This document shows, piece by piece, positions 10,618-11,630 of a stretch of DNA of 22,011 nucleotides (its first letter is position 1; every line of letters starts with the position of its first letter). A program made the position numbers and the translations under genes. Under the pieces are notes generated by a model that was not told where the DNA came from, made no database searches, and worked only from the letters and a program-made list of their open reading frames with translations. The DNA comes from a virus (Duplodnaviria > Heunggongvirae > Uroviricota > Caudoviricetes): IMG/VR virus record IMGVR_UViG_2609459830_000015. One strand, 5' to 3'.

Positions 10618-11445
10618 TTACTTAACCTGAATAAATGGTGTGTTGGCACCGCTGGTCATGTATTGCGGCAGTGTACCGTTCCACTTGTTGATGGCTTCCA
10701 GCTCCATAACACCGGGGTTCTGGCGCAGAGCTTCACCGCGTAAACGAATAGCATCGGCTTCGGCCTGGGCTTTTGTGCGAATCGCATCTGCCTGTCCGGC
10801 AGCTTCCGCGCGCAACATGTTGGCTTCCGCTTCGCGCTGTTTTACTTCCTGCTCGCGTTGCAGGGTTTTCTGGTTCGCCGTGACTTTGGCATTAATGCTG
10901 TCGATAACAGTAGGTGGGTACTCCGGCTTACCCACATATGAGAGGCTCATTACCTGAATACCGATGGGCGTCATTTCTTCCTGAATGTCTTTAAGAGCTG
11001 CATCCAGCAGCTCAGACTTGCCGCCGTCGATAAATTTGTCGGTGGTCATTTTGCTGGCCAGTCGGTTGAGTGCGTCGGCTATCTTCTGGCGCAGGTCGGT
11101 GTCGGTAATGTCGTCCACGCCTTTGCGGTAGGTCTGAAAGACTGTGGTAACTTTGGATGGATCAACTTTGTAGGCCACGCCGATGTGATAGCCGATGGTT
11201 GTACCGTCACTCATCTGGAAACTGAATGGATCATCGTAGGTCTTCATCTGCTTAAAGGTCGGGAAGATGTAAACCTCAGTGTTCCATCCCGTCCAGTAGC
11301 GCCCAACACCGACCACTTCACCGACGCCTTTATCGTCGCCCAGTTTGTTTACTTTGATGCCCACATTACCAGGCTCAACGCGATCGCAACCGACAAGGCC
11401 AATGGTCGGCAGAACAAGGGCTAAAGCAAAAAGTAATTTTTTCAT
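10618..11445 (-). CDS. SPFH/band-7 (prohibitin/HflC-like) lipoprotein
   Basis: 275-aa ORF with a signal peptide and lipobox (MKKLLFALALVLPTIGLVGC), a beta-rich core, and a C-terminal A/E/Q/R-rich coiled coil (REQEVKQREAEANMLRAEAAGQADAIRTKAQAEADAIRLRGEALRQNPGVMELEAINKWNG) typical of SPFH proteins. Confidence 0.75.
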   Translation of the reverse strand: MKKLLFALALVLPTIGLVGCDRVEPGNVGIKVNKLGDDKGVGEVVGVGRYWTGWNTEVYIFPTFKQMKTYDDPFSFQMSDGTTIGYHIGVAYKVDPSKVTTVFQTYRKGVDDITDTDLRQKIADALNRLASKMTTDKFIDGGKSELLDAALKDIQEEMTPIGIQVMSLSYVGKPEYPPTVIDSINAKVTANQKTLQREQEVKQREAEANMLRAEAAGQADAIRTKAQAEADAIRLRGEALRQNPGVMELEAINKWNGTLPQYMTSGANTPFIQVK

Positions 11446-11630
11446 CTTTTATCCTTAGAAAAAGAAAGACCCTTATAAATGGCATAAATGCAGGGCGGGG
11501 TCAGACACGCCAGAGCAAAGCCAGAAATCACTGCTACCGTATCCTTCATTGATATGAGGGCCGGAACGATTAATCCGTAAATACATGTGATAATTGCCAG
11601 TGATATAACTATTCTGAAATAAATGTTCAT
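11442..11630 (-). CDS. Small membrane protein (62 aa, 2 predicted TM helices), translationally coupled to the SPFH gene
   Basis: Hydrophobic ORF (IVISLAIITCIYGLIVPALI; VAVISGFALACLTPPCIYAIY) whose stop overlaps the SPFH start. The small-membrane-partner-plus-SPFH arrangement recalls NfeD/YqiJ-stomatin pairs. Confidence 0.5.
   Translation of the reverse strand: MNIYFRIVISLAIITCIYGLIVPALISMKDTVAVISGFALACLTPPCIYAIYKGLSFSKDKR

Follow-up and report, generated by a model that had tools for sequence, protein, structure and literature searches.

A coupled gene pair for a predicted SPFH lipoprotein and a small membrane hairpin in a phiP27-like prophage of Escherichia coli belongs to a module shared by very different phages

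Why do phages, temperate and virulent alike, carry a gene for a protein of the SPFH family, and why is a gene for a very small membrane protein joined to it? This question is raised by a locus in the IMG/VR virus record IMGVR_UViG_2609459830_000015, of which one stretch of 22,011 nucleotides was analysed (hereafter the window; coordinates are window positions unless a locus label of the type L086 precedes them). A first-pass annotation of the window, made from the sequence alone, had noted a 275-aa SPFH lipoprotein and a 62-aa protein with two transmembrane (TM) segments, encoded by coupled genes in a leftward early operon, and had proposed for them a part in the lysis-lysogeny decision or in exclusion at the membrane. 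We find that genes of the two protein families are almost always paired and translationally coupled, as a module that recurs in widely differing phage lineages, both temperate and virulent. The two open reading frames (ORFs) sit on the minus strand at exactly 10618-11445 and 11442-11630 in the ORF list, and their features are:

11634..11639, minus strand: AGGAGG Shine-Dalgarno sequence of the partner gene (sequence reading)
11442..11630, minus strand: partner gene for the 62-aa helical hairpin protein, predicted at the inner membrane, PHROG 1130 (ORF, profile match, hydropathy, AlphaFold model)
11520..11564, minus strand: conserved turn region of the hairpin, residues 23-37 (P-ALI-S-MKDT-VAVIS-G; alignments of 87, 16 and 18 sequences)
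11442..11445, minus strand: stop/start overlap ATGA, translational coupling (ORF list, sequence)
10618..11445, minus strand: gene for the SPFH/Band_7 protein, a predicted lipoprotein of 275 aa, PHROG 200 (Pfam, PHROG, AlphaFold model, Foldseek)
11386..11445, minus strand: predicted signal peptide and lipobox (MKKLLFALALVLPTIGLVG-C20), followed by Asp at +2 (sequence, alignment)
10822..11382, minus strand: SPFH domain proper, residues 22-208 (Pfam envelope, strands and helices of the model)
10720..10914, minus strand: long single helix (residues 178-242), which in SPFH cages is the coiled-coil wall element (AlphaFold model)
10633..10686, minus strand: C-terminal conserved motif KWNGTLPQYMTSGANTPF (alignment; low model confidence as monomer)

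The larger protein is an SPFH protein, as had been annotated. The Pfam domain Band_7 (PF01145) matches it with E=8e-31 and 107.9 bits (cutoff 23.6) over residues 22-208, which correspond to profile positions 2-176 of 176; the lack of such a match, named beforehand as grounds for giving up the proposal, thus did not occur. PHROG 200 'lipoprotein' matches the protein with E~1e-114. Its N-terminus, MKKLLFALALVLPTIGLVGC followed by DRVE, is composed of a basic n-region, a hydrophobic h-region and the lipobox LVGC (residues 17-20; criterion [LVI][ASTVI][GAS]C) that the annotation had pointed out. Cys20 is invariant in an alignment of 11 sequences, whose relatives are 28-46% identical to the first sequence, and a lipobox is present in 51 of the 52 SPFH clusters (at about 80%) to which 257 loci were reduced in a survey from the SPFH side by hidden Markov models (HMMs). 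Lipidation at Cys20 is predicted and, because the signal peptide and the lipobox imply export, so is an SPFH domain that faces the periplasm. The most conserved stretches of the protein are the one after the lipid-carrying Cys, C-x-x-V-x-x-G-x-V-G, and the C-terminal K-W-(N/D)-G-x-L-P...P-F; in the C-terminal motif KWNGTLPQYMTSGANTPF the K, W, G and P are invariant across the family.

The AlphaFold model (predicted local distance difference test, pLDDT, 79.7) has strands at residues 19-94 and 163-175, followed by a helix of 65 residues (178-242), while residues 249-275 are modelled at pLDDT below 50, with the C-terminal motif disordered in the monomer. A Foldseek search of the PDB with this model returned 79 matches at E<=1e-3, and among the 50 matches listed all are SPFH-family proteins or major vault protein. 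The ranking comprises HflC/HflK, erlin1/2, prohibitin, stomatin, flotillin, QmcA and major vault protein at 13-20% identity, with E-values down to 5e-14 in the group of HflK/C, erlin and prohibitin. As modelled, the protein has the full architecture of the cage-forming SPFH proteins of the HflK/C-prohibitin-erlin group, and it most resembles the branch with domains facing away from the cytoplasm. The SPFH domain itself holds no surprise.

Among known systems, HflK/HflC-FtsH of E. coli (PDB 7wi3, 7vhp/7vhq, 9cz2) ranks first or nearly so among the structural matches (Foldseek E about 5e-14 to 1e-12), likewise with an SPFH domain, a long coiled-coil helix and a C-terminal cap segment. HflK/C are oriented towards the periplasm (PMC2636767), the same side that signal peptide and lipobox suggest for the phage protein. 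However, the identity is only 17-20%, the phage protein would be anchored by a lipid-modified Cys instead of an N-terminal TM helix, and its gene is a single SPFH gene with the hairpin and an ORF6N gene as neighbours, whereas HflK and HflC are two adjacent paralogues without a dedicated 62-aa hairpin partner. Orthology with HflK/HflC is ruled out by this architecture and by scores of 23.4 and 25.4 bits on TIGR01933 and TIGR01932, far below the equivalog cutoffs of 159.4 and 134.4. Prohibitin and erlin complexes are also among the top structural matches, and a GenBank note on the protein Pylas_029 of an N4-like phage reads 'Prohibitin family'. The prokaryotic prohibitin-like subfamily SPFH4 of Hinderhofer et al. 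2009 has no NfeD partner, is probably periplasm-oriented and had no characterised bacterial member at that time (PMC2636767); neither lipobox nor hairpin partner was described for it, and it gives no precedent for a function.

QmcA and YqiK face the cytoplasm, unlike the predicted exported phage protein. The SPFH-NfeD operons to which they belong (QmcA-YbbJ, PDB 8z5g; YqiJ-YqiK; archaeal PH1511-PH1510) also couple a scaffold gene with a gene for a small membrane protein, and QmcA is a structural match to the phage protein (E=3e-8). Their partner carries an OB-fold domain, whereas the phage partner is a two-helix hairpin only. A check for NfeD, suggested by the first-pass annotation, came out negative: NfeD (PF01957) matched none of 16 diverse partners at E<=1, and the hairpin of the window has no Pfam match at all at E<=0.01. 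With 62 aa it is too short to hold an NfeD domain. In kind, the phage pair would be a virus-borne variation on the theme of an SPFH scaffold with a small membrane partner, with a scaffold predicted to be lipid-anchored and periplasm-facing and a hairpin that is not NfeD.

The 62-aa protein matches PHROG 1130 'membrane protein' with E=1.5e-23, a family that takes in all 16 diverse hairpins tested and that PHROG files under 'moron, auxiliary metabolic gene and host takeover'. The two TM segments of the annotation are recovered both as two hydrophobic segments by hydropathy and as two helices, H4-26 and H31-59, in the AlphaFold model (pLDDT 75). In alignments of 87, 16 and 18 sequences only P23, S27 and G37 (window numbering) are invariant, and these lie in or beside the four-residue turn (27-30) that joins the helices. 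Most of the small ORFs compared share the motif YG..(L/V)P.(L/M)(I/V)S.(K)(D/S)(T/S)..V..G between two TM helices. Over 87 distinct hairpins the mean number of K+R is 1.1 in the N-tail of 5 residues and 3.4 in the C-tail of 11 residues, and the 5-residue turn is neutral to acidic. Because of this positive-inside bias, the hairpin is predicted to adopt an N-in/C-in orientation with the conserved turn in the periplasm, which would bring its invariant residues to the same side as the exported lipoprotein, at the periplasmic interface of the membrane.

Two other names for the hairpin were rejected. DUF3149 is a database name given to one homologue, and no such Pfam match was obtained in 16 members at E<=1. 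In its architecture, the hairpin fits a class II holin (small, two TM domains, N-in/C-in, basic C-terminus); the fit concerns architecture only. Two holin Pfam models are each touched by one of 16 members at E=0.03-0.04, and the neighbours are early genes, not a lysis cassette.

Both genes are real and under purifying selection, since the ratio of nonsynonymous to synonymous substitution rates (dN/dS) against phiP27 is 0.034 for the SPFH gene and 0.30 for the hairpin gene; L05 of phiP27 is 97.8% identical to the SPFH protein of the window. Their coupling, too, is as annotated: the genes overlap by the ATGA at 11442-11445, and the Shine-Dalgarno sequence AGGA of the SPFH gene falls inside the last codons of the hairpin ORF.

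How general is this arrangement? By tblastn the SPFH protein was found in 780 of 50,697 phage records, among them the virulent N4 (gp20) and N4-like, rV5-like, Felix-O1-like, T4-like, crAss-like, jumbo, PaP3-like Pseudomonas and phiCbK-like Caulobacter phages, and also P1-like phages; more distant relatives occur in Staphylococcus Kayvirus and in haloarchaeal viruses. It is also present in 543 of 5426 complete E. coli genomes (about 10%), with 198 matching places on plasmids. For the hairpin, tblastn alone yielded 25 phage records and badly under-estimated the family, so that iterated HMM and profile searches were needed. These gave 104 clusters in an indexed search and 892 representatives at 50% identity in an exhaustive HMMER search, nearly all of them stand-alone proteins of 54-91 aa.

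Of the 52 SPFH clusters, 35 have the hairpin gene as the immediate upstream neighbour in the same orientation (gap -20 to +60 nt), with a start/stop overlap of 1-20 nt in 28 of these adjacent pairs; in four further clusters it lies 140-900 nt upstream. A small ORF touches the SPFH start in P2-like P88, N4 (gp19), Pylas, phiE125 (gp44), Aeromonas Gekk3-15, Ochrobactrum ORM_20 and others. Reciprocally, in ten of ten look-ups that started from the hairpin the next downstream gene encodes a Band_7 protein or a lipobox-bearing SPFH protein, usually overlapping, with a 44-aa ORF between the two in two cases. The loci were retrieved in a way that biases the sample; even so, SPFH genes and hairpins are strongly linked whichever of the two the search starts from. 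The pair, matched by PHROG 200 and PHROG 1130 and adjoining on one strand, is found in phages of the lambdoid/phiP27 type, in which the first-pass annotation had suggested a survey, but it is not confined to them, since N4-like, rV5-like, P1-like, P2-like and crAss-like phages carry it as well. Strictly virulent carriers are N4 (gp19/gp20), N4-like Pylas, rV5-like SPLA5a and, sharing the arrangement in a phage of Bacteroidota, crAss-like cr126_1. In these phages the pair lies in early or non-structural regions, in N4 after RNAPII. In P2-like P88 it follows cox, in a region that we take to be the lytic early operon.

Annotations of these genes are uneven. The hairpin ORF is present and unannotated in phiP27 (AJ298298, L002 3816-4004), in Stx2 phage records and in the P1-like MH445380 (L086 about 3295-3500). 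The SPFH genes of phiP27 (L05) and of Stx2 phages are mislabelled 'serine protease'; neither this label nor 'transposase fusion protein', found on other homologues, is supported by the domain content, which is only Band_7, and we suspect that 'serine protease' was carried over from annotations of the NfeD type. The members phiP27 L05, N4 gp20/gp19 and phiE125 gp43/gp44 belong to the same two families, and their entries carry no function. In the P1-like phage-plasmid contigs L257-L264 (about 4230-4805) a Tad2-like gene (PF11195) lies about 0.7 kb downstream of the pair.

What does the position of the pair say about its role? The surrounding prophage is phiP27-like and from E. coli; the stretch is 99.9% identical to prophages of strains E110019, VR50 and others, in which RefSeq names the two proteins 'SPFH domain-containing protein' and 'hypothetical protein' (hairpin). 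The pair lies between a cI-like repressor gene and the integrase gene, as it does in phiP27 and in Klebsiella phage ST11-VIM1phi8.3. The relevant features at the head of the operon are:

13965-14657, minus strand: gene for the cI-like S24 repressor (gene order)
13929..13946, minus strand: terminator-like hairpin with T-run after the cI-like repressor gene (sequence scan)
13870..13898, minus strand: promoter-like site TTGACG-17-TATTAT, matching in 10 of 12 positions, which would drive the leftward operon (consensus match only)

From about 13830 down to the integrase gene (7393-8571) every gene is on the minus strand, and gaps are mostly short or replaced by overlaps. Behind the promoter-like site follow genes for a helix-turn-helix protein, small ORFs including a ParE-like toxin, a 130-aa protein, the hairpin and the SPFH protein, and then an ORF6N antirepressor-like protein, small ORFs and the integrase. 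Between 8500 and 15500, 4 promoter-like sites were observed against 10.9 in shuffled sequences, and none flanks the pair; a sequence scan gave no promoter-like or terminator-like site on the minus strand immediately around it, and the GC-rich hairpin after the SPFH stop (about 10589-10609) has no T-run. A classic moron with its own promoter and terminator is thus unsupported, and the natural reading is that the pair belongs to the leftward early operon, as had been annotated.

In lambda, the equivalent leftward operon encodes cIII, an inhibitor of FtsH. It could be proposed, as in the first-pass annotation, that the SPFH protein is a phage analogue of HflK/C that tunes the degradation of a CII-like regulator by FtsH and thereby sets the lysogenisation frequency; it would then be a functional analogue of lambda cIII. 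The position in the operon would fit, the first gene of the operon (the helix-turn-helix protein) matches PHROG 'CII-like regulator' with E=2e-50, and topology and fold resemble HflK/C. The same idea, namely that phage SPFH genes may promote lysogeny in the manner of HflC/K, has been put forward in several genome papers (PMC4936722, PMC8540360, PMC10269572) and in a GenBank note, and in the papers it comes with the remark that the gene also occurs in obligately lytic phages. Exactly this argues against it: because the pair is conserved in strictly virulent phages, which make no lysogeny decision, a role in that decision cannot be its general function. Besides, the scores are far below the equivalog cutoffs of HflK and HflC, and there is neither a paralogous SPFH pair nor a link to FtsH. 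We therefore regard the tuning of CII as very unlikely.

A few observations concern the neighbours of the pair. For the ORF6N gene the ORF list gives a GTG start at 10649, which overlaps the SPFH stop; RefSeq and the sequence favour ATG 10574, which leaves a gap of 43 nt and no overlap. The ParE-like toxin protein (12080-12298, minus strand, 72 aa) matches PF24732 with E=3e-17, and its gene is overlapped from upstream by a 71-aa ORF (12270-12485, minus strand) of the same leftward operon; the two may be a toxin-antitoxin pair. At 9260-9828 (minus strand) two overlapping ORFs of 119 and 93 aa are one frameshifted gene according to RefSeq, and its first part has a match to a PHROG family named RusA-like resolvase. 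An IS66-family transposase gene (20812-21930, minus strand) occupies the right end of the window, downstream of a region resembling a Q antiterminator; the prophage is probably disrupted or in decay. The GC content is low (32-35%) over roughly the first 4 kb of the window. Here a 572-aa histidine-kinase-like protein (HATPase_c/HEF_HK) and a 588-aa Response_reg_2 protein (PF19192) are encoded by overlapping genes on the plus strand (472-3940), adjoined by a second tyrosine integrase gene (4467-5738, minus strand). The region 472-5738 looks like a separate island integrated beside the prophage, possibly a conflict system, with no significant match in PADLOC.

The module is an unexpected mosaic. 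In E. coli phages, three types of hairpin (lambdoid/phiP27-type, P1-like and P2-like), with mutual identities below 50% (19-35% when compared in pairs), are found in front of mature SPFH domains that share at least 97% identity; compared were P88 (L003) and the P1-like L086 and L257-L264 against window positions 11386-11630. The signal peptide of the SPFH protein changes with the type of hairpin (none of 153 pairs was discordant), and the DNA similarity to P88 and to P1-like phages starts at about codon 17 of the SPFH gene. The recombination junction lies at the lipobox, and hairpin plus signal peptide are thus exchanged as one unit against the mature SPFH protein. Adjacency alone, and hence mere linkage, may account for this. 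Alternatively, the hairpin could recognise the N-terminus of its lipoprotein within the membrane, or it could serve as a diversifying element of specificity. The divergence of the two proteins is only weakly correlated in a comparison of the mirror-tree type (Spearman 0.21), since near-identical SPFH domains carry very different hairpins, and for the same reason this correlation is uninformative on a physical interaction.

Such diversification is what one might expect of a specificity determinant in superinfection exclusion, in which hairpin and periplasmic lipoprotein would stop the ejection or the periplasmic transit of the DNA of other phages. T4 encodes Imm, an inner-membrane protein with two TM segments, and the periplasmic Sp, and Llp of T5 and Cor of phi80 are lipoprotein exclusion factors. 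The analogy lies in the layout, an early phage-encoded small inner-membrane protein with an exported periplasmic or lipoprotein component, and not in sequence: these factors are small, are no scaffolds and are unrelated to the SPFH pair in sequence and fold. Exclusion would agree with both products being predicted at the envelope, with an early expression context in virulent and temperate phages, with at least three types of hairpin that diversify much faster than their near-identical SPFH partners, and with the PHROG category. However, the SPFH fold occurs in no known exclusion protein, a cage-forming scaffold of 275 aa exceeds the needs of a receptor blocker, and the extreme conservation of the mature SPFH protein (dN/dS 0.03) is unlike that of typical arms-race proteins. 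In PADLOC-DB 2.0 no defence-system family matched either protein or the flanking genes at E<=0.01, and a catalogued defence system is rejected. Finally, without a promoter of its own and in its operon position, the pair is probably silent in lysogens, here and in P88, and so would protect only cells that are already infected. On balance, exclusion is unlikely.

Is the pair needed at this site? When E. coli genomes were searched with the two flanks as a joined query, all 49 genomes with both flanks proved to contain it (span about 2440 bp); no precise empty site was found in this search, and a clean presence/absence polymorphism is rejected. In several dozen other E. coli genomes only the upstream flank is shared, the downstream one being different. 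Two such prophages were inspected, in E. coli EC20017429 and 2012C-4227 (L279 and L280, both 2475-2990; annotated as pseudogene): they have kept the hairpin gene, and their SPFH gene has an internal deletion of about 490 bp and a frameshift. A prophage thus persists without the SPFH gene, in keeping with a function that is accessory or belongs to the lytic cycle.

What, then, might the pair do? The reading that we favour as a whole, tentatively and at somewhat less than an even chance, is that both genes belong to a single conserved phage module with a function at the cell envelope in lytic development. It draws on the Band_7 domain, the cage-type architecture, the invariant lipobox Cys, the topology of the hairpin, the pairing and the positions in early regions; as obligately lytic phages have kept the module, lytic growth is what its core function must serve. 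The module would be made during lytic growth, here after induction of the prophage or on infection. The 62-aa protein would insert into the inner membrane as an N-in/C-in hairpin and expose its short turn (P23, S27, K/D-D/S-T, G37) at the periplasmic face, while the 275-aa protein would be exported and lipid-modified at Cys20, with its SPFH domain in the periplasm. There the turn could dock near the membrane-proximal N-terminus of the mature SPFH protein, which would assemble on the membrane, via its long helix and its C-terminal motif, into a ring- or cage-shaped oligomer, like HflK/C, prohibitin and erlin. The co-translated hairpin would supply in trans the TM element that these proteins carry in cis. 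Retention at the inner membrane, contact between the two proteins and the oligomeric cage are all conjectured from such comparisons.

An assembly of this kind might enclose or reorganise a patch of inner membrane. Its likeliest effect would be to change the access of membrane proteins to quality-control proteolysis, for which FtsH is the obvious candidate because of the precedent of HflK/C and of prohibitin with the m-AAA protease. In a temperate phage such an effect might also touch the lysogeny decision, as a by-product or special case. An action on FtsH or on inner-membrane proteostasis is by analogy reasonable but unproven, and FtsH as the actual target is a guess that we consider doubtful.

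Several points weigh against this envelope module. The hairpin went undetected in 13 of the 52 SPFH clusters of the HMM survey. Where pairs exist, hairpins with only 19-35% identity sit on SPFH domains with at least 97%, and any contact would therefore rest on few conserved positions. The deleted SPFH genes described above show that a prophage can do without the protein. At the level of sequence the similarity to HflK is marginal (E=2e-4), as is that to the coiled coil of prohibitin-2, no other such match being present, and no specific link to FtsH emerged. In the literature, as far as it was covered, we found no functional test of any family member in any phage.

The location of the lipoprotein is a further point of this kind. 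Asp at +2 is the Lol-avoidance signal of E. coli and retains a lipoprotein in the inner membrane, whereas Ser at +2 sends it to the outer membrane; Tyr at this position, as in proteins of the N4 type, is reportedly retaining as well. The window protein has Asp at +2, and Arg at +3 may weaken its retention; in most family members from unknown hosts (31 of 51) the residue at +2 is Ser, which makes retention at the inner membrane uncertain. Moreover, a Pasteurella prophage protein, the HflK/C-like PM0222, has been reported in outer-membrane vesicles; it activates Toll-like receptors (TLR) 1/2, and its deletion mutant is attenuated (PMC9872710).

From these findings one might construct a surface factor of lysogenic conversion, that is, a lipoprotein of the outer membrane or of vesicles with effects on the animal host, such as TLR1/2 agonism of the kind reported for PM0222. 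The Ser at +2 of most members would be an outer-membrane signal in E. coli, and the window comes from E. coli lineages that include pathogens. Yet such a factor leaves unexplained both the conservation in virulent phages of environmental bacteria and the inner-membrane hairpin, the pair lacks a promoter of its own for expression from the prophage, and, since any lipoprotein triggers TLR2, the effect of PM0222, which we liken to the family by description only, may be generic. We consider this explanation highly improbable.

A scaffold in the periplasm could also serve the phage by stabilising the membrane. It might reinforce or organise the inner membrane during massive phage production and so delay early triggering of the holin or collapse under membrane stress, or envelope enzymes of the phage might be exported by Sec with its help. 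Organising membrane microdomains is a role generally ascribed to SPFH proteins, the hairpin has an architecture like that of class II holins, and in crAss-like cr126_1 a peptidoglycan hydrolase gene lies two genes downstream. In Kayvirus the genes mbpS and mbpV are located between lysK and the transglycosylase gene tgl, and help in the Sec export of Tgl has been suggested (PMC7150955). However, in the window and in N4, Pylas, P88 and phiP27 the pair lies among early genes, far from the lysis cassette, the holin Pfam models are unmatched (one of 16 members at E=0.03), and the Kayvirus pair lacks the lipobox and the hairpin of the PHROG 1130 type, for which reason it may not be the same module. 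A role in stabilisation, lysis timing or export therefore seems distinctly unlikely. The Kayvirus genes themselves, as seen in Staphylococcus phage A5W (L094 1166-2265), encode an SPFH protein, MbpS, with an N-terminal TM segment and no canonical lipobox, preceded with an overlap of 1 nt by MbpV with one TM segment, directly after the endolysin gene lysK; they may be a Gram-positive counterpart with a different partner.

Going further than the envelope module as favoured above, one could see in the pair an undescribed, phage-specific envelope machine of lambdoid, P1-like, P2-like, N4-like, rV5-like and crAss-like phages: a periplasmic SPFH cage that is installed early and controls a patch of the host envelope. 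Its purpose could be to exclude competing phages, to shield the membrane from effectors of abortive infection or to disable quality control of the FtsH type. The hairpin could hold the lipoprotein at the inner membrane independently of the Lol signal and set the specificity for the target. We present this as speculation and rate it as rather unlikely.

The genes themselves are already catalogued, and the pair of the window is an ordinary member of PHROG 200 and PHROG 1130. Pfam matches for SPFH in T4-like phages have been noted (PMC1524935), and elsewhere the reason for a phage SPFH gene was called unclear, with adsorption or DNA entry as possibilities (PMC13239085). That the pair might prove to be a common module with a demonstrated, unrelated role had been considered in the first-pass annotation: the module is common, but a demonstrated role was not found in the literature. 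Neither did we find, in a coverage of the literature that is incomplete, a description of the hairpin partner or of its pairing with the SPFH protein. Compared with the literature found, the almost obligate coupled pairing, its breadth, the predicted topology and the mosaic structure appear undescribed.

SPFH scaffolds such as HflK/C, prohibitin, stomatin, flotillin and erlin have recently been shown to form membrane cages, and their effect on the enclosed membrane is debated. The phage pair is a minimal, two-gene version encoded by viruses; it is very widespread and is present in model phages that are easily manipulated, namely N4, P1-like, P2-like and Stx phages. As for annotation, the recurrent labels 'serine protease' and 'transposase fusion' find no backing in the domain content, and several reference phages lack the hairpin ORF in their records. 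The pairing gives a concrete handle, the co-expression of two small genes, on a family about which there has so far been only speculation. Should the pair target FtsH or membrane integrity, a general function of host takeover would have gone unnoticed; if it blocks other phages, it would represent a new mechanism of exclusion.

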